From an archaeon (GTDB lineage: Archaea > Iainarchaeota > Iainarchaeia > Iainarchaeales > CSSED10-239): DNA of 64,000 nucleotides. Shown piece by piece: positions 8,531-50,913 of the stretch. Each line of letters begins with the position of its first letter. The stretch's first letter is position 1. The translations under genes and the position numbers were made by a program. The stretch is taken from positions 28,866-92,865 of the forward strand of contig DAOMZT010000001.1 in the NCBI GenBank assembly GCA_035400625.1. The letters run 5' to 3'. Below the pieces are notes generated by a model. It ran no database searches. It had not been told where the DNA came from and saw only the letters and a program-made list of their open reading frames with translations.

Positions 8531-10462
8531 TTAGTGGTTTTTTAGAAAGGCTACCAATTTCTTATCTATAAGCTCACTTGCCTCTTTTCCGTCAAGCAAG
8601 CCTTTTGTTTTTGCCATAAATCTGCCCATCAATAGACCTTTGGCTCTCTCTTTTTGTGCTATTATCTTTTCTTTGTTTTCTTCAATAATCTCTGAAAGAA
8701 TCTTTTCAATATCGATTTTTTCTAGATCTTTAAAGATGCCTAGGTTTGCTATAACCTTATCAATGGGGTTATCTGAGTTGTTATATTCTAGATAAACCTC
8801 CATTAATTTTGATTTTGGGATCTTATTAAAATCTTTGTAAGAGAAAAACTCCAATAGCCCATCACTGGTTATATTTTCTAAATTTATTTTGCCGTCTCTT
8901 GAAAGATTAATCAAGTCCTCAAGAAGAAAGACAGCAACTTGTGTTGGATTAAGAGTTGGATTGTTTTTTAGGATCTTTTCAAAAGTAACTGCGAAGTTAT
9001 CAAGAATCATTTTTTCTGCTAGCTGTTTACTGATTTTGAAGTTTTCTGTATAAAGCTTTCGTCTTTGTTCAACAGACAATGGCATTTCTTTTCTTGCAAC
9101 ATCAAGAATTTCTTTTGTAAAGATAATTGGTAATAGATCAGTCTCAGGATACATTCTTGAACCACCGGATGAAATTGGCCTTTGGTATTCTGTGTTGCCT
9201 TCGGTGTTGACAAGTCTTGTTTCTTCAGGCACACCTTTAGAGAAAAAATTTATTCTTTCTTCAAGAACTTCTTTAACTTGATCTATTTCTTGTTTATCAC
9301 ACATGACAAGAATGAAAGAATCTTTAGGTGTTAGTTTTAGTGCAGAATTTATGTTTTTTATGTCTTCAGAAGTTATGCCGTAATTTGGAAGCTCATCGGC
9401 ATGGAAGAGACCCTTAAGAGTGGTCTTGGCTTTTAGAATGCTTGCAAGCTCTGTTCCTACTCTTCTGTTTGGCTGAACCTCTTTACCTAAAAGACCAGAA
9501 AAGCTAGGTAAGGCAAAACCAAAAATGTTTTTCTTCTGCTCAAGAGAAGATTTGATTGCCTTTGATTCTGTTTTTTTGAAAAGAGCAGTTAAATCAATTT
9601 CTGAGAGCTTTATTTCTTCTATCTTTCTTTTTTGTAGCTCTTCTTTTAGCTCTAGAAGATTTAATTGCCTAACTATTTCTCTATCTATGATCTCTGGGAT
9701 CATCTCAAGGTCCTGACAACCCTTGATCTCTGTTCTAGAACCGTTAGCAATCGAGATGTTGATGTCTTGACGAATTGAACCAAGCCCTCTTTTTACTTTG
9801 CCTGTTGTTCTGAATAGCTGTCCAAGAAATAATGCGACTTTTTTAGTGTCTTCGGGCGTGTGCATATCGTGCCAAACAACCATCTCTATCAAAGGGATAC
9901 CTAGGCGATCTAGAGAATAAATAACTTCTGTGTCTTTTCTTTCTATTGCTCTTGCGGCATCTTCCTCTAAAAGAATCTTATCGATTCGAACTTTTCCAAA
10001 ATCAAAATCTAGATAGCCATCTGTTGAAATCATTGCTGTTCTTTGAAAGCCAGAGACATTAGAACCGTCAATTACTTGCTTTCTCATGATTATTGACTTG
10101 TCTACAAGTTTTGAGTTTGTAAGATTTGAAATAATTACTGCAATCTTTAATGCTTCAGGGTTTGTTCTTATTGGTGGCTGACAATCAGCCTCAACCAAAC
10201 AATTACAAGCATTATAAAAATGATAAACATAGGTCTTTGCTTTCTTTTGCTCTTCAAGAGCAGTTACATCAAACTCCCCTGTCTCTGAATAAACAGCACG
10301 AAGTTTTCTTTTTATTATTCTGTCTGGTTTTGTATCTTCCTTTATCAATAGAGATTTACAATTACAGAAAAGCTTGCCAGTATCAAGTTGTTGATGAATC
10401 TCAAGACCACAAGCTAAACCTAATTTCTCATAATCGCAATTTTTAAGTTCTTCTAATTTCAT
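8531..10462 (-). CDS. gatE: Glu-tRNA(Gln) amidotransferase subunit E
   Basis: Archaea-specific GatE length and sequence character. Immediately upstream of gatD with a 2-nt spacer. Confidence 0.9.
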   Translation of the reverse strand: MKLEELKNCDYEKLGLACGLEIHQQLDTGKLFCNCKSLLIKEDTKPDRIIKRKLRAVYSETGEFDVTALEEQKKAKTYVYHFYNACNCLVEADCQPPIRTNPEALKIAVIISNLTNSKLVDKSIIMRKQVIDGSNVSGFQRTAMISTDGYLDFDFGKVRIDKILLEEDAARAIERKDTEVIYSLDRLGIPLIEMVVWHDMHTPEDTKKVALFLGQLFRTTGKVKRGLGSIRQDINISIANGSRTEIKGCQDLEMIPEIIDREIVRQLNLLELKEELQKRKIEEIKLSEIDLTALFKKTESKAIKSSLEQKKNIFGFALPSFSGLLGKEVQPNRRVGTELASILKAKTTLKGLFHADELPNYGITSEDIKNINSALKLTPKDSFILVMCDKQEIDQVKEVLEERINFFSKGVPEETRLVNTEGNTEYQRPISSGGSRMYPETDLLPIIFTKEILDVARKEMPLSVEQRRKLYTENFKISKQLAEKMILDNFAVTFEKILKNNPTLNPTQVAVFLLEDLINLSRDGKINLENITSDGLLEFFSYKDFNKIPKSKLMEVYLEYNNSDNPIDKVIANLGIFKDLEKIDIEKILSEIIEENKEKIIAQKERAKGLLMGRFMAKTKGLLDGKEASELIDKKLVAFLKNH

Positions 10463-10464
10463 AA

Positions 10465-11799
10465 TTACTCAAATCCATCAAAATCAGCAGGAACTTCTTT
10501 TTTTGTAATTTCTCCTGAGATGTCTTTTGACATATATTTTATTATGTCTTCTTTTGTCTTAAATCTTGCTAATGCTACACCTAGCTTAATGCAAGCAACC
10601 TCTGGTAACATATCATGATGATCAAGATAATTAACCCCAGCCTTTGTTAAGTTTCTAAGATTAGAATAAACATTTCCATTTACTCTGCCAAATAAGCACT
10701 GGGTTGTCATAATAATAATTATGCCTTTCTTTGAGGCCTTCTCTAAATATGGTAGACAATCTTTTGTTTTATCTGTTAATTTGTTTGTGGAGTCGTCTGT
10801 TGGGACAAGACCTAGGCCAGTGCCTTCTAAAATTAGGCCTTTGTAACCTTTAGAGATATACCAATCAATAACTTCTGGATTAAAGTTTGGATATATCTTT
10901 AATAATGCAACAGTGTCGCTAAAAGAAATGTCAAGATGTGGCTTTTCTTTTTGAATTTCCCAAAAGAGCTTCTTGTCTTTTAGGTATTCTATTTTGCCAT
11001 TCTGATAAACCTTAGCAAGAGCAGTATCATTAACTGCCCTAAAAGCATCCCTTCTTGAAGTGTGCATCTTTCTGCATTTTGTAGCCCTTATGATATGGCA
11101 AAAATCATCACTTATTGAGCCATGCATAGAAGTGTAGACGCCAGGTATTTTTTCTTTAATAAAATGAGCAGCACAAACTAGATTCATAGCGCCATCAAAA
11201 CTTGCCCTGTCAGGAGACCTCTGAGCACCAACCATCAAAACTGGCTTGTTAAAATTTGAAAGCATAAAGGAAAGAGCAGTTCCTGTTATTGTTAAGGTGT
11301 CTGTTCCATGAGAAATTATCACGCCATCAATCTCATCATCAATTAATTGCTCATAGACTGCTTTTGCTATCGCTTGCCAATCTTTGTAGCACAGATCCTC
11401 ACTTGCTTTTTGAATAACCGGCACTATCTTTTTAATATTAACAATCTCTAAAAGCTCAGGAACTGTTGATAATATCTCCTCAGGGGTTCTTGACATGTTT
11501 ACACCGCCTGACTTATAATCAACATGTGTTCCGATTGTTCCACCGGTTGCAACTAGACAAATAGAAGGAAGAGCAGGGTTTTGCTTAATCTCAAGCTTAT
11601 AAGTTTTGCCAATTTCTTTTTTTTCTGAAAGCAACTCATACTTTGTGTCTTTATCAAGAATTACAGAAATGTTATAGCCATTATCTTTTAGTTTTATTGT
11701 TAGTTCATTTCCTGAGATATTAACAATGTGACCAAGATAAGTAATGTTCTTTTTTATAATCTTAATAAGCTTGCCTCTGTCCTTCTCTGAGATGTCCAT
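10465..11799 (-). CDS. gatD: Glu-tRNA(Gln) amidotransferase subunit D
   Basis: Asparaginase-like TGGTIG motif (LVATGGTIGTH) and GatD architecture. Operon with gatE. Confidence 0.9.
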   Translation of the reverse strand: MDISEKDRGKLIKIIKKNITYLGHIVNISGNELTIKLKDNGYNISVILDKDTKYELLSEKKEIGKTYKLEIKQNPALPSICLVATGGTIGTHVDYKSGGVNMSRTPEEILSTVPELLEIVNIKKIVPVIQKASEDLCYKDWQAIAKAVYEQLIDDEIDGVIISHGTDTLTITGTALSFMLSNFNKPVLMVGAQRSPDRASFDGAMNLVCAAHFIKEKIPGVYTSMHGSISDDFCHIIRATKCRKMHTSRRDAFRAVNDTALAKVYQNGKIEYLKDKKLFWEIQKEKPHLDISFSDTVALLKIYPNFNPEVIDWYISKGYKGLILEGTGLGLVPTDDSTNKLTDKTKDCLPYLEKASKKGIIIIMTTQCLFGRVNGNVYSNLRNLTKAGVNYLDHHDMLPEVACIKLGVALARFKTKEDIIKYMSKDISGEITKKEVPADFDGFE

Positions 11800-11860
11800 A
11801 ATTAAAAACTCCTGCTTTGCCTAAAATATATATAAGAAAAAGAATATATAAAGCTAATGC

Positions 11861-12277
11861 CTAGTGGCCATATCTCTTAAACAAAAACTTATGGCAGAAA
11901 TATCTTGTAAGAAACATTAAAAACCCAGATAATATATTTGCAAGTATATAGTTCATATGACAATTTTCAACAAACACAAACAATAACCAGAGATTAGCTA
12001 ATATTGTAATAATGGAAATACTAAAATAAATAAAGGTAAAAACAGAATTAACTTTTTTTTGCTTGTGTGTTCTTTCTTTAACTATGTATTTCTTGTTTAA
12101 AAGATAATTTACATAAAGACCAGAAAGTATGCCTATAACTGCTGATAACAAATAATGTAATTTTAATACCTCAGTAAATAAAACTAAAATGCCTAGATGT
12201 ACAAAAGTCCCTACAAATCCTAGAGTTGCATACTTAAGAAATATCTTTTTATTATATATTAAAGAATTACTTATCAA
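11861..12277 (-). CDS. GtrA-like small membrane protein
   Basis: Four-TM topology and 138-aa size with a GtrA-like pattern. Confidence 0.5.
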   Translation of the reverse strand: MISNSLIYNKKIFLKYATLGFVGTFVHLGILVLFTEVLKLHYLLSAVIGILSGLYVNYLLNKKYIVKERTHKQKKVNSVFTFIYFSISIITILANLWLLFVFVENCHMNYILANILSGFLMFLTRYFCHKFLFKRYGH

Positions 12278-12438
12278 CTCATAATAAACCGCATGTAAAA
12301 AGCCTGGTTTTTTTTAGTAAGAAGTGTTTCTCTAAAAGATATCTTTTTTCGTCTAAACATTTTATCGCATTTTATTGTAATTTGTTTATATTATTTAGCA
12401 AAATAAAGAATATAAATGCTTTCTATTATCTTATTTAT

Positions 12439-41315: not shown

Positions 41316-43820
41316 ATGGCAATTGATTTTGAATCTGAAGAAATTATTGTTGGAAGAAACCAAAGCCAAATAAAGAAATATGGAAAGAAGGCTACTGGCT
41401 ATATAGGCAAGGTTGTAGTGTCCAGCGGAGATGAGCCTGTTCTTGGCAAAAAAGTATTAATGGATGTCTCTCGTTCACATGTTGCGATAGTTTGTGGAAA
41501 AAGAGGTGGTGGCAAATGCCTGACAGGAGATACACTCATAACCTTAGAAGACGGAAGAGAGATACCTATTCAAGACTTAGGAAAGGAGAATAAAAAAATA
41601 ATTTCCTTACAAAAAAACCTGAAATTAAAATGTTGTAAAAAAGAACAATTCTACAAACGCACGGTAAACAAAGTATTAGAAATAACATTAAGAAGCGGGA
41701 AAAAAATAAAACTAACCCCAAATCATCCATTATTAACAGTATGTGGTTGGAAAGAAACTAAAGATTTAAAAAAAGGAAGCAGAATTGCTACACCTAGAGA
41801 GGTGCCTAGATTTGGCAACAAAAAGCTTCGTGATTGTGAAGTTAAATTATTAGCATATTTAATCGCAGAGGGCCATTTAGGGAATGGATTTGTGTTGTTT
41901 TGCAATAATGATGAAAAAATCATTTCAGAATTCAAAAATGTAATTTATTCTTTTGATAAAGGACTAAAGATATCGCCTCATGGTCGCAATAACTTAAGAA
42001 TATCTAAAATTGAAAATGGCAAAGAAAAAAACAGTTTAAGGAAATATTTTGATTCTCTTGGATTATATAATGTAAAATCAGATACTAAATTCATTCCAGA
42101 AACTATATTTCAATTACCTAAAGAACAACTTTCTATATTTTTAAATAGATTATTTAGTTGTGATGGCACCATCCATTTTGATAAAAATAAAAAAGAATAT
42201 AATATTTCTTATTCATCTTCATCTCCTAAACTAATACAACAAGTCCAAAGTTTGCTTTTAAGATTTGGATTGCTTTCAATAATTAGAACAAAAAAAACTA
42301 AAAAATTACCAAACTATGAACTAAAAATCTTGTCTTCTCAAAATTTAGAATTTATTAAAAAAATCGGGTTTTTTGGGAAAAAAGAAGAAATACAAAAAAA
42401 AGTAAAAACAAAAAATAGCAATCCTAATGTAGATACAATACCTAAAGAAATTTGGGAAATTTACAGACCAAAAAACTGGGCGACAGTTGGTAAAGGATTT
42501 GGTTATAAATCATTAAGATCATCAATCAACTATTCTCCATCTAGAGAAAAACTACTTAAAATTGCAAATTGCGAAAATAATAAAGAATTGAAAAACCTTG
42601 CAACTAGCGATATCTTCTGGGACGAGATTATTGATATAAAAGAAATTAACAAAAAACAAACAGTTTATGATATAACAGTTCCAGAAACTCATAATTTTGT
42701 TGCAAACAACATTATTGTCCATAATAGCTATACTATGTCTGTTCTGATAGAAGAATTTGCAAAACAGCCATTTGAAATTAAAGAAAGATTGTCTGTTATT
42801 GTCATAGACACTGTTGGAATATTCTGGACCATGAAATATCCAAACAAAGAAGATGCAAAGCTTCTTGAAAAATGGAATCTCAAACCAGAAGGAATAGATA
42901 TCAGAAATCTTGTGCCTTTTGGTAAGAAAGACTTCTATGAACAAAAAAATCTTCCACATGATGGTTGTTTCTCAATAAGGACTTCACAAATGGATATTGA
43001 AGATTGGCTTGGAGTATTTAGACTTAATTGGAGAGATGCAGAGTCTTCTTTGCTTTCAAGAACTATAGAGAAAATAAAAAACAAGGTTGGAAATCTTTAT
43101 GATATTGACGACATCATGAACGAAGCAAAAAAAGACACAGAAACATCATCAGAAATAATCAACTCTTTAAATAATAGATTTCTTGTTGCTAAATCCTGGG
43201 GGCTATTCTCTAGATCAGGGACAACAATGAAGGAGTTTGCAAAGCCAGGAACAATAACTATTATTGATACCAGTACTTACAAAGAAGCAATTGGCATGGA
43301 ATCAATTAGAGAACTTATTGTTGGAATACTTGGTAAAAGACTATATGAAGAAAGAATGCTTTATAGAAAAGAAGAAGAAATGGGGTTGTTATCTGGCGGA
43401 AGAAAAGAAAGCGAGATGCCAATTATCTGGATGATGATTGATGAGGCACACATGTTTATGCCTAGCGACAGGCATTCAATGGCACTTGATGTTTTGTTAC
43501 AATGGATCAGGGTTGGAAGACAGCCAGGGTTATCTTTGCTTCTTGCAACACAAAGGCCAAACAAATTACATAACGAGGCAATCTCGCAATGTGATTTTTT
43601 CTTGAGTATGAGAATGACTTCTCAAGAGGACATTATGGCTGTCTCATCAATTAGGCCAAGCTATCTTAATATTCCTATGGACAAATATTATGGACAGATG
43701 CCAAAAGACCAAGGTTATGCAATACTTCTAGATGATAACTCAGAAAAAGTAATGTTAATAAAAATTAGACCAAGAATAACATGGGATGGTGGAAAGACAG
43801 CAAATGTTTTTGTTGATTAA
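41316..43820 (+). CDS. FtsK/HerA-superfamily (DUF87/HerA-like) ATPase interrupted by an intein in the Walker A motif
   Basis: Exteins give Walker A GKRGGGK|S, Walker B IIWMMIDEAH, and the LLLATQRP motif characteristic of HerA/FtsK/VirB4. The mature extein is about 431 aa. Confidence 0.75.
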   Translation: MAIDFESEEIIVGRNQSQIKKYGKKATGYIGKVVVSSGDEPVLGKKVLMDVSRSHVAIVCGKRGGGKCLTGDTLITLEDGREIPIQDLGKENKKIISLQKNLKLKCCKKEQFYKRTVNKVLEITLRSGKKIKLTPNHPLLTVCGWKETKDLKKGSRIATPREVPRFGNKKLRDCEVKLLAYLIAEGHLGNGFVLFCNNDEKIISEFKNVIYSFDKGLKISPHGRNNLRISKIENGKEKNSLRKYFDSLGLYNVKSDTKFIPETIFQLPKEQLSIFLNRLFSCDGTIHFDKNKKEYNISYSSSSPKLIQQVQSLLLRFGLLSIIRTKKTKKLPNYELKILSSQNLEFIKKIGFFGKKEEIQKKVKTKNSNPNVDTIPKEIWEIYRPKNWATVGKGFGYKSLRSSINYSPSREKLLKIANCENNKELKNLATSDIFWDEIIDIKEINKKQTVYDITVPETHNFVANNIIVHNSYTMSVLIEEFAKQPFEIKERLSVIVIDTVGIFWTMKYPNKEDAKLLEKWNLKPEGIDIRNLVPFGKKDFYEQKNLPHDGCFSIRTSQMDIEDWLGVFRLNWRDAESSLLSRTIEKIKNKVGNLYDIDDIMNEAKKDTETSSEIINSLNNRFLVAKSWGLFSRSGTTMKEFAKPGTITIIDTSTYKEAIGMESIRELIVGILGKRLYEERMLYRKEEEMGLLSGGRKESEMPIIWMMIDEAHMFMPSDRHSMALDVLLQWIRVGRQPGLSLLLATQRPNKLHNEAISQCDFFLSMRMTSQEDIMAVSSIRPSYLNIPMDKYYGQMPKDQGYAILLDDNSEKVMLIKIRPRITWDGGKTANVFVD
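41517..42725 (+). mobile_element. intein (403 aa) with LAGLIDADG homing-endonuclease domain
   Basis: Starts with Cys (CLTGDTLI, block A). Has block B TPNHPLL, two LAGLIDADG motifs (LLAYLIAEGHLG and LNRLFSCDGTI), and C-terminal block G ...NIIVHN followed by the +1 Ser of the P-loop. Length is divisible by 3. Confidence 0.85.
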
Positions 43821-43865: not shown

Positions 43866-44546
43866 TTATTCATCAACCAATTTTGCTCCAAAATCTTTAG
43901 CAATAGTGTCTGCTATTTTTATTTTCTTGCTTGGAGCTTCTAATTGAAGTATGTTGTCTTTCTCAAAATAAATAACTAGGCTTTCAGAAGCAAGTCTGAA
44001 CTTCATGGTCTGTGCCTTTAATACTTCGTCAAATATCAGATTAATGTTTGTGGCAGGAACAATAATGTCAATTCCGACTTTCCTTCCTTTTATGTGCTCT
44101 GCTATATTATTAAGATCAATGGTGCCTACAACATTAAACTTTAGAACAAATTCAGAAATTTCAAAAGACTCAACAAGCCTCTCTATAAATTCTTTTGATT
44201 TTTTAGAGTTTTCAAATATCATTAGTCTATAGCATCTGAAGTTTTCTAGGAAAACATCTCCTGCAGCTATTTTTTTCTCATAATCGTTTATTTCTGCATT
44301 AATGTTCTCTATAAGGATTAGCATTTTTTTATATAAGGAAATCAGTTCTCTTTTTTTTATTTCTTCTTCAATTATAGAATTTAAAAGCGGTTCTTTCTCG
44401 CTAATGTCTTGTAACTCTTTAACATCTTGAGCAAGTGATGATATTACCTCTTGCACTGGCTTATAGAGCTCTAGAATCTTATTTGTCCTATACAAGTTTT
44501 TATTTAAAGAATCAAATAATCTAGTTAATTTTGGATCTTCTGGCAT
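43866..44546 (-). CDS. hypothetical protein (226 aa, N-terminal coiled coil)
   Basis: Clean ORF convergent with the HerA-like gene. No family assigned. Confidence 0.4.
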   Translation of the reverse strand: MPEDPKLTRLFDSLNKNLYRTNKILELYKPVQEVISSLAQDVKELQDISEKEPLLNSIIEEEIKKRELISLYKKMLILIENINAEINDYEKKIAAGDVFLENFRCYRLMIFENSKKSKEFIERLVESFEISEFVLKFNVVGTIDLNNIAEHIKGRKVGIDIIVPATNINLIFDEVLKAQTMKFRLASESLVIYFEKDNILQLEAPSKKIKIADTIAKDFGAKLVDE

Positions 44547-45564: not shown

Positions 45565-46314
45565 TTATTTAACAAATCTTTTGCGAAACGAATAATACAT
45601 GGTTGCATTTTTCTGTTTGGCAACTTTAGAAACTTCTGATAAGAAATCAACAATATTATCTGCACTCATTTTCTTTAATTCTGTTGGTTTAAAGCCTTTA
45701 TGAAACACAGAATTAAAATCTTCAACATATGTTTGATAGATAGATTCATAAGCGTGTTTGGCTTCAGCTTTTGAATAAATTGAAATTTTATTTATAATGT
45801 CAATTTCCTGAGAAAATAAATCTTTAAATTTAGTATCCATTATCTCTTTAACTGTGCCTTTCCTTGAAGCTTTTAAGACAGTATTTAATTTTTTTGTCCA
45901 ACTCTCCATTTGTCTTTTCTTAATTGCCGTTAATCTTCTTCTTTCTGCAACTGCTAAATCGTGTGTTCTTTGTGTTTCTAAATCAGATATCTTTCTTTTA
46001 TATTTCAATTTTAAATCAGTTATCTTTTGCTCATAAATCTTTTTATCTAAATCAATTTTCATTTGTTCTTTTTTGTTTGCACCAACTGTTTTTTCCAATG
46101 ATTTAATTTTCTTTTCATATACTTTTAACAATGAATCTCTATTTTGTTCGGTAAAAGCTACTTTCTCATTAAATGCTCTTGTGCCTGGCTTTGTTAGTTT
46201 CCCGGTCTTTGGGTTTCTTTTATAGCCAAGTTCTGATGGCGTGGCTCTTTTGCCGGTTATTGCCTTTCTTGCTTTTAAATATATCCTTGGTTTAGTTGCT
46301 CTTGGTTTTATCAT
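45565..46314 (-). CDS. hypothetical protein with K/R/P-rich N-terminal tail and coiled-coil region
   Basis: Basic repetitive N-terminus (KPRATKPRIYLKARKAITGKRATP...). Confidence 0.4.
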   Translation of the reverse strand: MIKPRATKPRIYLKARKAITGKRATPSELGYKRNPKTGKLTKPGTRAFNEKVAFTEQNRDSLLKVYEKKIKSLEKTVGANKKEQMKIDLDKKIYEQKITDLKLKYKRKISDLETQRTHDLAVAERRRLTAIKKRQMESWTKKLNTVLKASRKGTVKEIMDTKFKDLFSQEIDIINKISIYSKAEAKHAYESIYQTYVEDFNSVFHKGFKPTELKKMSADNIVDFLSEVSKVAKQKNATMYYSFRKRFVK

Positions 46315-46549: not shown

Positions 46550-47059
46550 CTATCTTTTGCTTTTTTGAGTATATATTCTTTTATTGACACTAGCTGAAGA
46601 TTCTCCTGATGAATATTTTCTTGAATCTAAAAGGCTGTTAAATAATCCAACTTCCTTATAATAATCATTTTTTAATAATTCATTTCTAGTTATCCTGTAT
46701 TGCTTTGGCTTTCCTTGATATTCTTGTGTGAAAACCATTGTGCCAATTTTCGGGTCTAATCTTATTTCGCTTATTGGGACATTATAAAAAACTCCTCTTG
46801 GCTTATGTACTGGCTCTCTATTATAAACAGGGCTTCTTGATTTCTTATAATAATCATCTAAAACTCCTGTTTGTGATCTTCTTACTCTTGCATTCTCTCT
46901 TCCAACTTTTCTTAATTTTTCTAATTGCTTTGGAGTCAATTCTTTTGCTGAAACTCTACGGGTCGTATGTTTAGTACCTGTTGGCGATTTTCTCAATTTT
47001 AAAACTGACCTTTTTGGTTTTGGTGGTGCTGGTGCCTTTCGCATTTTTAATAACCCCAT
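46550..47059 (-). CDS. highly basic hypothetical protein (169 aa)
   Basis: K/R/P-rich N-terminal tail. No family assigned. Confidence 0.4.
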   Translation of the reverse strand: MGLLKMRKAPAPPKPKRSVLKLRKSPTGTKHTTRRVSAKELTPKQLEKLRKVGRENARVRRSQTGVLDDYYKKSRSPVYNREPVHKPRGVFYNVPISEIRLDPKIGTMVFTQEYQGKPKQYRITRNELLKNDYYKEVGLFNSLLDSRKYSSGESSASVNKRIYTQKSKR

Positions 47060-48256: not shown

Positions 48257-49699
48257 CTAGATTGTGGTTTCTTCCTTTTTTATCTCTATGTTGCTACTTG
48301 TCAGAGTTGGTCGCAAAAGAAGCCTTAATGGATCCTTATCAGGGTATCTTATGACAACATCATTATTAGATATAACCTCTATTTTCACTGTTGCTGGTTC
48401 TTTATCTATGAAATCATCAATATGCCCTGCACCAATACAGTAGTTTAATTTTGGGTTTTCCTTAAGTATTGTTAATAGCTCATTTCCAATAAACGAATTG
48501 TTAAAGACATCGCTTGCTTGAGGAATAATTACTAACACGTCCTCTTTTACTTCTTCAGATAATTTTTTAAGTATTCCATAAATGTAATAAACGTGCAATG
48601 GGTTATTTCTATTAATCATGAAGACCTTGCTTGATCCTATATTTTTATATGTGCTTTCAAAAACTATTGAAAGATCAGTCTCTCCAAAATAACCACAATA
48701 CACATCATCAATAATATTCAATTTAGAGATTATCCTCCATTTTTCAAAGTCAGTTATTTCATCTGTAATTCCTATGGCTGCGATATTCGCTATTAATTCA
48801 GAAATGTCCTTTACATTATCGGTATATGCCTGATCAATAATTTTTTGAGAAACACCAGTAAATTTAAATAAATTGATAAAAGCCAATTTTGGTATTGTGT
48901 ATAATGGTATCTTAATCTTAAAAAAATCAATTGTGTTTATTGGGAAGCCAAAAGGAGAGACCTTCATATCAAAGGCACTCAACAGTTCTTCTTTTTGCTG
49001 AGGATAAGATAATGTCTTAAACACCCCTGTGCTATCAAAGACAATCACTTTCTTTGAAGACAGCAGGTAATTTTCAGCAATAACTTTCATTGCAAATATT
49101 CTATCTTCTTCTTCTGAACCTGTTACTACAATTGACCTTAGATTCTCTAAGCTGGCATTAATTGTAATTCCATTCTTTCTACCAACCAACAACTTATCTA
49201 CTGAACTAATTGCTGATGAAAATTCTATGTTGTTTGGAGAGTTGGTCAATACCTTAACAATAAACGGATCATAAAAGAAATAATTTTTCTGTTCTGGTGG
49301 CAACATCTTTAGTGACAATAGTTTTATGTTATAAGATTTTATTATAGAAATAATGGAACTTGTGATTTTGTTTAATTTTAATATTTTCTTTTCTATGTGT
49401 TCATTAAGTTGAGAAGAATCTACTATTTCTGTATCTGTGTTTAATATGAAAAATTTGTGAGTGTTCTTGTCGCCAATGTCAAAATGCTTCTCAAAAACAA
49501 TACACTGGTTTGGTAGTGTTTCTGCAAATAATTCTATATCCCCATCAACACCAAACACCTTGTATAATTGAACAAGCACCGAAGACGGATCTTTTGATCT
49601 TAATAAAGAAACAAAATAGTCATCATTAAATAAAATTGCCAAATCTTTTTGACCATATACACCTTCAAAAAGTGTACTCCAAGTTGTTATTTGTGCCAT
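48257..49699 (-). CDS. inactivated paralogue of the HerA-like ATPase (degenerate Walker A/B)
   Basis: SIVVTGSEEEDR...VIVFDSTGVFKTLSYPQQKEELL...VSPFGFP parallels the HerA-like protein HVAIVCGKRGGGKS...VIVIDTVGIFWTMKYPNKEDAKLL...LVPFG. Walker A and B positions are replaced (GSEEEDR; PQAS for DEAH). Confidence 0.5.
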   Translation of the reverse strand: MAQITTWSTLFEGVYGQKDLAILFNDDYFVSLLRSKDPSSVLVQLYKVFGVDGDIELFAETLPNQCIVFEKHFDIGDKNTHKFFILNTDTEIVDSSQLNEHIEKKILKLNKITSSIISIIKSYNIKLLSLKMLPPEQKNYFFYDPFIVKVLTNSPNNIEFSSAISSVDKLLVGRKNGITINASLENLRSIVVTGSEEEDRIFAMKVIAENYLLSSKKVIVFDSTGVFKTLSYPQQKEELLSAFDMKVSPFGFPINTIDFFKIKIPLYTIPKLAFINLFKFTGVSQKIIDQAYTDNVKDISELIANIAAIGITDEITDFEKWRIISKLNIIDDVYCGYFGETDLSIVFESTYKNIGSSKVFMINRNNPLHVYYIYGILKKLSEEVKEDVLVIIPQASDVFNNSFIGNELLTILKENPKLNYCIGAGHIDDFIDKEPATVKIEVISNNDVVIRYPDKDPLRLLLRPTLTSSNIEIKKEETTI

Positions 49700-49794
49700 G
49701 TTATTAATATAATATTTATTACCTTATTCATATTTTAAATCAAAACATTTAAATAAATTATTTATTATATATTTTTAATAGCTATAGTATATAA

Positions 49795-50328
49795 ATGGTT
49801 TTTATAATGGTAGATGCAACACTAATCAAAGATACAATTACTGAATTATTGGAAGCAAATGTAGATAAGGAAACAATCTATCAGACTTTAAAAGACATTG
49901 GCGTAGACAGTGCAGATATTGATAAATACTATAGAGATGCAACAACTAAAGAAAAAGCAAAGCAAACAGAAACCAAAACACCAGAACCTGAAACAGAAAC
50001 AGAAACACCAGATGTTTCTGAAAATTCAAAAACCGAAGAAGCAATACATCATAAGCCAAAAGTAACAACTGAAGATTTAGAAAAAGCAACTAAAGAAGTT
50101 ATTGATTCAGAAGTTATGAAAAATCAAGAAGATATAGAAGATAACATAATTATAGAAAAAGATAATGCTCAAATTTTAGAAATTAACAACACAATTTTAG
50201 AAATTAAAAAACAAGTGTCTGGTCTTGAAACCCAGATAAGTGATATTAAAGCGCAGATTAGTGGCCTTACTAAAATTATGAAAGATATTCTTGAAGAAAA
50301 TAGAAATATTTTAAACAAGTTAAAGTAA
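49795..50328 (+). CDS. hypothetical acidic coiled-coil protein
   Basis: T/E-rich linker and a C-terminal heptad region. Alternative start at 49807. Confidence 0.4.
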   Translation: MVFIMVDATLIKDTITELLEANVDKETIYQTLKDIGVDSADIDKYYRDATTKEKAKQTETKTPEPETETETPDVSENSKTEEAIHHKPKVTTEDLEKATKEVIDSEVMKNQEDIEDNIIIEKDNAQILEINNTILEIKKQVSGLETQISDIKAQISGLTKIMKDILEENRNILNKLK

Positions 50329-50330
50329 CG

Positions 50331-50645
50331 CTATTGATTACCAAGCATTTTTAATAAATCTTCGTAACCGCCACCGTCTTCTTTTGGAGCACCACCTTTC
50401 TTAAATATAGCAGATAAAATAATTATTAAACTACACACACCTAAAATGATTAACCATAAATGAGGGATTTCTGCTGTAGTTATAAACAACATTATTGCTA
50501 AAAGAAAGACTAAAAGTAAATTTATCAAACTAGGAAAAAATATAGAATATAGTATTACAACAACTGGTGCAATAAAATAATAATTATATTGAAAAGAAAA
50601 GATAATAAGCAAGCCAATAACAAAAAAACTTAAAAAGTCAAACAT
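50331..50645 (-). CDS. small membrane protein (3 TM)
   Basis: Hydrophobic, 104 aa. Tandem with the next small membrane gene with a 1-nt spacer. Confidence 0.45.
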   Translation of the reverse strand: MFDFLSFFVIGLLIIFSFQYNYYFIAPVVVILYSIFFPSLINLLLVFLLAIMLFITTAEIPHLWLIILGVCSLIIILSAIFKKGGAPKEDGGGYEDLLKMLGNQ

Positions 50646-50646
50646 G

Positions 50647-50913
50647 TTATTTTTTTACTCCTGTCCAGCTTTTTATTGTGTTTTTCAAATCGCTTCCAAA
50701 TATCCAGTATATCCCTACTCCGATAGCAACTAACCATATCAAATCTGGGTATTTGTAGAATAAAAGAAAAACTAAAAAACCAGTAATTAATATTGCAATT
50801 AATTCATTACCAATTTGTTTTTTTGCCCAAACATAAATTGATATTGAAAAAACTATGAATAATATTATCCAAATAGAATCTTCTAAAGATGTTGCTAAAA
50901 AAATATTATTCAT
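50647..50913 (-). CDS. small membrane protein (2-3 TM)
   Basis: Hydrophobic, 88 aa. Confidence 0.45.
   Translation of the reverse strand: MNNIFLATSLEDSIWIILFIVFSISIYVWAKKQIGNELIAILITGFLVFLLFYKYPDLIWLVAIGVGIYWIFGSDLKNTIKSWTGVKK

Follow-up and report, generated by a model that had tools for sequence, protein, structure and literature searches.

What might a protein of HerA descent do once its ATPase motifs are gone? The question is raised by a gene at positions 48257-49699 (minus strand) of the window, by which we mean the whole 64,000-nucleotide stretch analysed here, taken from contig DAOMZT010000001.1 of an archaeon of the Iainarchaeales (assembly GCA_035400625.1). The window has a GC content of ~30%, and TFB, Alba and the ribosomal proteins L15e and L44e surround the gene. 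The open reading frame (ORF) call, the homologues and the ratio of nonsynonymous to synonymous substitution (dN/dS) identify its product as a non-catalytic HerA-fold protein of 480 amino acids (aa), here called the pseudo-ATPase. The protein is a conserved HerA-clade relative in DPANN archaea. Its loss of motifs is old, common to the family and kept by selection, because GK[ST] is missing from every family member aligned, dN/dS is low, and members occur in both Micrarchaeota and Diapherotrites/Iainarchaeum. As to its role, we give about even chances to the reading that it is a functional, non-catalytic scaffold of the FtsK-HerA P-loop superfamily, presumably tied to the membrane through the products of two neighbouring genes, cc177 and tm88.

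A HerA-clade family without ATPase motifs

A protein search returned 38 close full-length homologues, the closest of them in metagenome-assembled genomes labelled Candidatus Iainarchaeum, 'ainarchaeum' or Diapherotrites, including the complete Ca. Forterrea multitransposorum genome. Scanning 1.84 billion representatives gave 181 clusters at 50% identity (E <=0.001), nearly all of 470-520 aa and matched end to end. The named members come from Micrarchaeota and Diapherotrites/Iainarchaeum, and all are annotated as hypothetical; the contig profile search, made with the close alignment, reaches Iainarchaeota only, and a word-indexed protein search with the broad alignment gave back little besides the close clade. 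The single 480-aa sequence matched nothing in Pfam, NCBIfam or the PDB sequences, and a profile of the close family against PDB gave only noise (ZAP-70, E 0.33). Pfam DUF87 (PF01935, gathering threshold 23.2 bits) leaves the window protein unmatched and matches 12 of 54 family members at E <=0.1, the best at 1e-7; no Pfam or NCBIfam model covers the protein. From sequence alone, the family profile does detect HerA (4d2i), with a match that covers the entire ATPase domain (E 2.7e-6).

Motif columns were counted over a broad alignment of 54 family sequences (A3), and 12 distant members were also read directly. The degenerate Walker A, residues 194-201 (GSEEEDRI; 49097-49120, minus strand), aligns to GKRGGGKS of a motif-competent ATPase encoded in the same window, a 431-aa protein after removal of its intein. 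GK[ST] occurs in 0/54 members. Glycine persists in the Walker A columns of 43/54, and the lysine position, residue 200, reads Arg in 43/54 and Lys in 3/54, without the following Ser or Thr. The degenerate Walker B, residues 389-396 (LVIIPQAS; 48512-48535, minus strand), stands opposite WMMIDEAH in the hhalign alignment. Its Asp position, 393, is Pro in 32/54, Asp in 6/54 and Glu in 6/54, and position 394 is Glu in 18/54. Where HerA has SQRP and the 431-aa ATPase TQRP, the family aligns S-A-E-x-E-x-D-L; lacking [ST]QRP, the pseudo-ATPase therefore has no such arginine to offer an adjacent subunit. Walker A, Walker B and [ST]QRP are thus all lost in every lineage examined. A preliminary description of the window had called the protein catalytically degenerate and HerA-like, with PQAS in place of DEAH, and on both counts it was right.

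Other positions are kept. Glu209 (49073-49075, minus strand), nine residues after the Walker A lysine position, is invariant (54/54); the 431-aa ATPase family has an invariant Glu of its own, E76, at that spacing (K67+9). Near the C-terminus, a conserved strand carries R459-x3-R463-P464 (RLLLRP; 48308-48325, minus strand), with R459 in 53/54, R463 in 54/54 and P464 in 49/54; the ATPase family has a comparable invariant R415-P416-R417 close to its own C-terminus, a likeness at the motif level only and outside the hhalign alignment.

Because ATPase motifs are missing and the protein carries no annotation anywhere, one could suspect a pseudogene, an ATPase spoiled by a frameshift or by sequencing errors, or the remnant of a mobile element or virus. 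We consider decay or artefact extremely unlikely. The frame is unbroken in all homologues, the motif loss runs through all 54 members, and dN/dS is 0.05 against L005 (91% aa identity) and 0.11 against L007 (72%), with estimates ranging from 0.05 to 0.12. Moreover, among the 24 Iainarchaeal loci compared (L001-L024, including some repeat copies of the same contig), the position between L15e and TFB is stable wherever the flanks are covered. Family-wide motif loss together with dN/dS rules out a pseudogene or a sequencing error, so the preliminary description's own caveat, an intact P-loop hidden by sequencing error, can be set aside. Phage origin is likewise ruled out, as tblastn against 50,697 phage records gave no match.

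With these motifs gone, the pseudo-ATPase should be unable to hydrolyse ATP and very probably unable to bind it. A possible objection is that nucleotide is still held in a non-canonical pocket, which would make the protein a switch or sensor like FlaH, an archaellum protein that binds ATP and barely hydrolyses it. Arg200 at the Walker A lysine position (43/54) and the Glu one residue past the Walker B Asp position (18/54) could be read in that light. However, the loop is acidic in the window's clade (S-E-E-E-D) and variable across the family, no Ser or Thr is present for Mg2+ coordination, and the Walker B Asp position is usually Pro. On these residues, we judge a nucleotide switch very unlikely.

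Structure prediction is consistent with HerA ancestry. Residues ~169-464 (48308-49195, minus strand) form a HerA/FtsK-type RecA-like core of the ASCE (additional strand, catalytic E) class with the HerA-type helical insertion, and its closest folds are the DNA translocases HerA, FtsK, TrwB and VirB4. It is preceded by an N-terminal alpha/beta domain, residues 1-155 (49235-49699, minus strand), with seven strands, a long helix at 95-122 and a short helical tail, which models confidently when taken alone (predicted local distance difference test, pLDDT, 84). The preliminary description had noted such an extension, correctly, but put it at roughly 190 aa; the excess over the ATPase is ~130 aa, the P-loop falling at residue 194 versus 61. 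Its suggestion of a HAS-barrel did not hold, as none is found among the top 60 structural matches of the domain. Secretion-chaperone and YbjN folds resemble it weakly, and these matches suggest a protein-binding or dimerisation module without pointing to a specific function.

Relationship to the intein-containing ATPase and to HerA

The window holds a second HerA-like protein, the active, intein-containing DUF87 ATPase at 41316-43820 (plus strand; matches to Intein_splicing, LAGLIDADG_3 and DUF87). Spliced, it is 431 aa long (834 aa unspliced), with the motifs GKRGGGKS and IDEAH. It has more than 3,500 homologues in our search and matches HerA chains in PDB. The intein, residues 68-470 (41517-42725), carries a LAGLIDADG domain and sits directly after the Walker A lysine (GKRGGGK|C...HN|S). 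Its presence varies among close relatives: by tblastn the 431 aa are contiguous in L010 and L012, which are intein-less, and only the C-extein block is contiguous in L007, L009, L011 and L013. A 592-aa form of the ATPase (P0130) has Hint-type domains and likely a shorter intein.

Are the two proteins related, and how closely? BLASTP with the intein in place gives a single high-scoring segment pair (HSP) of 53 aa (E 3e-4), the segment VIVFDSTGVF.../VIVIDTVGIF.... With the intein removed, one HSP of 113 columns joins residues 164-263 of the pseudo-ATPase to 35-141 of the ATPase (E 6.7e-6) and sets the degenerate loop, SIVVTGSEEEDR, opposite HVAIVCGKRGGGKS. Comparing profiles of 29 close homologues and 33 ATPase homologues yields 64.6% probability (E 6e-5). 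The broad 54-sequence profile raises this against the 431-aa family to 95.3% (hhalign, E 2.2e-8). The alignment spans 261 columns, beginning at the P-loop and taking in Walker B, with VLVIIPQASDVF opposite IIWMMIDEAHMF and ~16% identity across the aligned profile columns. The significant pairwise similarity that the preliminary description expected is there, though weak. Among the segment matches it proposed, the VIVFDSTGVF/VIVIDTVGIF pair is found by BLASTP; VSPFGFP/LVPFG is chosen by neither BLASTP nor hhalign.

The description had further called the protein a paralogue of this ATPase. The ATPase is indeed the only other ORF of the window matched by the family profile (E 1.6e-5), but the relationship is not a special one. 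At a common database size, the family profile scores 29.5 bits for Sulfolobus HerA (4d2i) and 28.8 for YjgR; the 431-aa ATPase family ranges from 5.6 to 26.8 over 33 sampled sequences, with the window copy at 23.4. HerA thus outscores all 33 sampled ATPases, and the two families are not mutual closest relatives. ATPases of the window's own subclade score 23-27 bits with this profile and the rest of their family 6-19; the higher scores may stem from shared low-GC amino-acid composition and not from closer kinship. Judged from these sequences, 'paralogue' is right only in the sense of joint membership in the HerA clade, the pseudo-ATPase family being related to canonical HerA at least as closely as to this ATPase. 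The split between them is ancient, because the pseudo-ATPase family spans at least two DPANN phyla.

The preliminary description also placed the two genes 4.4 kb apart and took the pair of active and inactive ATPases as a sign of a heteromeric motor. Within the window, TFB, two Lys-rich ORFs, thioredoxin reductase and a 226-aa protein (p226) fill the interval. The ATPase comes within 10 kb of the pseudo-ATPase gene only in L007 and L009-L013, all of the closer subclade, where it lies 5-7 kb downstream and convergent with the intervening genes. It is absent within 10 kb from the six more distant Iainarchaeal loci L001, L003, L016, L019, L023 and L024, in which ScpA/ScpB-like and other genes fill its position. 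Nor was it found in the covered flanks of L025-L028, four distinct distant loci with some sides shorter. Conversely, no pseudo-ATPase gene lies near the ATPase loci of other Iainarchaeota (L030, L031). The proximity is subclade synteny, not an operon.

The pseudo-ATPase might conceivably join the 431-aa ATPase in a mixed ring and serve a single motor there in a regulatory or structural capacity. Homology links the two proteins, the family profile singles out the ATPase in the window, both have the invariant Glu at the Walker A lysine +9 and a C-terminal R-P motif, and in the six loci of the closer subclade they share a contig. Nevertheless, the genes are never adjacent or co-oriented and either occurs without the other nearby, kinship is no closer than with canonical HerA, and the loss of the [ST]QRP arginine removes one mechanistic rationale for pairing. 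The bulky N-terminal domain of the pseudo-ATPase also has no counterpart on the ATPase. We regard a mixed ring as distinctly unlikely. A mixed active and inactive HerA motor is the more exciting idea, and comparative evidence does not support it; the 480-aa family itself stays solid, conserved and unannotated.

Conserved neighbours and a candidate membrane complex

If not the ATPase, which genes accompany the family? The order L15e, tm88, cc177 (opposite strand), pseudo-ATPase, TFB is kept in all 24 Iainarchaeal loci as far as the contigs reach. An AT-rich intergenic region of 95 bp (49700-49794), delimited by the ORF coordinates, separates the divergent starts of the pseudo-ATPase gene and cc177, and the divergent orientation is kept in L001-L024 and in the distant loci L025-L029. 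The product of cc177 (49795-50328, plus strand) has a small N-terminal helical domain, an acidic linker and a C-terminal coiled coil ending ...ILEENRNILNKLK. Throughout L001-L024 the gene precedes that of the pseudo-ATPase and is on the opposite strand. Where the pseudo-ATPases are only ~20% identical (L025-L029), a coiled-coil gene of 138-206 aa occupies the same place in 5/5 loci, directly upstream and on the opposite strand, and it is homologous to cc177 (E 1e-6 for L026, 2e-5 for L027).

Beyond cc177 are two small membrane proteins. The product of tm88 (50647-50913, minus strand) has three membrane segments. All Iainarchaeal loci but one (23/24) have the gene; L009, which lacks it, stops within cc177. 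In L028 its homologue is L028_3986_4279 (E 6e-7), and this one matches L025_736_960 (E 2e-8). Between tm88 and cc177, tm104 (50331-50645, minus strand) encodes a small multi-pass protein, judged from hydrophobic segments in its sequence, and tblastn finds it in 9/24 Iainarchaeal loci, those of the closer clade. In L001 and L003 a membrane ORF of 97-102 aa takes its position, with a weak match to that of L001 (E 0.003). Runs of small membrane ORFs also precede the divergent coiled-coil gene in L025 and L028/L029, where the upstream sequence covers them; that of L026 and L027 does not extend so far. Pfam gives only sub-threshold generic coiled-coil matches for the coiled-coil and membrane neighbours. 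With cc177 and tm88 homologous across distant loci and the ATPase nearby in one subclade only, it is cc177 and small membrane proteins, and not the ATPase, that are the family-wide companions of the pseudo-ATPase.

The downstream side differs between clades. In the distant loci L025, L027 and L028, the pseudo-ATPase gene is followed by an opposite-strand gene for a second coiled-coil protein and then by a family-B DNA polymerase (PolB); L026 and L029 are arranged alike, except that their contigs end within the last gene. The second coiled-coil protein, of 133-155 aa with the motif INPLEFVT, lies at L025 5455-5892, L026 2412-2879, L027 2406-2807 and L028 6990-7439, between the pseudo-ATPase and PolB genes. 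Its copies are mutually homologous (pairwise E 1e-12 to 1e-23), and a search of the window did not find one.

These neighbours, together with the ancestry among DNA translocases, raise the possibility of a DNA-associated role other than that of a motor, in which a dead HerA/FtsK-like ring would hold or position DNA instead of serving as a generic scaffold, for instance during replication or while chromosomes are segregated at the membrane. PolB downstream in the distant clade points this way, as do TFB next door in Iainarchaeota and, at a distance of a few kb, ScpA/ScpB-like genes. The analysis identified no DNA-binding motif in the pseudo-ATPase, however, and in the window's clade PolB does not adjoin the gene. 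As a distinct explanation we think it unlikely, but it is compatible with a scaffold and does not exclude one; a DNA-related role would be a reasonable refinement.

The scaffold reading may be put as follows. The pseudo-ATPase would be a structural hub, probably oligomeric like its relatives, and its conserved partners would be the products of the divergent cc177 and the adjacent tm88, with tm104. All of these would make up one complex, tethered to the membrane and conserved in both Iainarchaeota and Micrarchaeota. Its interaction surfaces may be the N-terminal domain of the pseudo-ATPase and the invariant residues E209, R459 and R463; energy for the complex, if needed, would come from a separate protein.

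Several points weigh against this reading. The partners are assigned from gene order, by which L15e, TFB or PolB would also qualify as flanking genes, and part of the conserved order may be housekeeping synteny in small genomes. The presence of tm104 in distant lineages is a resemblance at motif level, the C-terminal tails in L025 and L028 being alike by eye only. On sequence alone, nucleotide may yet be bound at a non-canonical site. Finally, confidence in the full-length model is no more than moderate (pLDDT 76.6), and several of its loops score below 50.

Do known systems offer a precedent for such a scaffold? HerA is the DNA translocase of double-strand break resection in archaea and bacteria (PDB 4d2i, 7f6d, 9x1l). 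The pseudo-ATPase is without its Walker A, Walker B and [ST]QRP, and has a chaperone/YbjN-like N-terminal domain where HerA has the HAS-barrel. Whereas HerA has the NurA nuclease as partner, the partners here appear to be coiled-coil and membrane proteins; NurA is not listed among the Pfam-annotated neighbours in L001, L003, L025, L027 or L028, and in the window the neighbours are TFB and cc177. The protein thus belongs to the HerA clade by descent, yet differs from HerA itself in motifs, N-terminal domain and partner. The 431-aa DUF87 family is alike in the Glu at K+9, the C-terminal R-P motif and, in the closer subclade, its occurrence in the same genomes; it differs in being motif-competent, lacking the N-terminal domain, having far more homologues and not being syntenic outside one subclade.

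VirB4/TrwK and archaeal CedB-type ATPases, of conjugation or DNA import, work with small membrane proteins like VirB2/VirB3 or CedA1/A2. The pseudo-ATPase resembles them in having an N-terminal non-ATPase domain and several small membrane protein genes alongside, but those ATPases are active. The locus described here is part of the chromosome and conserved by vertical descent, and no homologues of pilins, VirB6 or coupling proteins were identified. FlaH of the archaellum and the RAD51 paralogues are non- or weakly catalytic RecA-fold subunits, and the pseudo-ATPase would work at most like these. The likeness to FlaH lies in a RecA-fold protein that has given up catalysis and, as a ring or adaptor, joins a membrane platform to coiled-coil proteins and an ATPase that is active. 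FlaH, in contrast, is of the KaiC/RecA-like branch and not of HerA, and keeps its Walker A and binds ATP; the relationship is one of fold only.

A bolder proposal, which we hold to be doubtful, is that the pseudo-ATPase, cc177 (with the INPLEFVT protein elsewhere) and the small membrane proteins make up a membrane machine, so far unrecognised, that Iainarchaeota and Micrarchaeota inherit vertically. Such a machine could be a stripped-down relative of FtsK, VirB4 or Ced-type systems for DNA handling or cell contact, with a purely structural HerA-fold hub. The full-text literature covered, which does not take in the 2004 survey of the FtsK-HerA superfamily (Iyer et al.), describes neither a HerA-clade pseudo-ATPase nor a cc177/tm88 module.

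Tiny DPANN genomes keep this 480-aa gene under strong purifying selection across two phyla, which makes a central function likely. Its product would count as a clear pseudo-enzyme of the HerA clade, with cc177, tm88 and tm104 as defined candidate partners. That offers a concrete complex to seek in co-cultures of Micrarchaeota or Iainarchaeota, and a family for annotators to define.

Other genes around the locus

Between TFB and thioredoxin reductase, the window has two Lys/Arg-rich ORFs of 249 and 169 aa (45565-46314 and 46550-47059, both minus strand), detected in the closer Iainarchaeal subclade only. The p226 gene (226 aa; 43866-44546, minus strand; compare L001 14215-15611 and L003 13717-15162) follows thioredoxin reductase wherever the contig reaches. 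After p226, where the window has the ATPase, more distant Iainarchaeota have ScpA- and ScpB-like genes. L027 encodes T2SSE and two T2SSF proteins of type IV filament assembly at 8752-12416, 6-10 kb from the pseudo-ATPase gene; the other loci do not have them and the proximity is probably coincidental. Upstream of the module in L025 (1249-2835) is a run of small membrane proteins, paralogues with an N-terminal transmembrane segment in common, which in two of them is followed by a KAPSGG-type motif.
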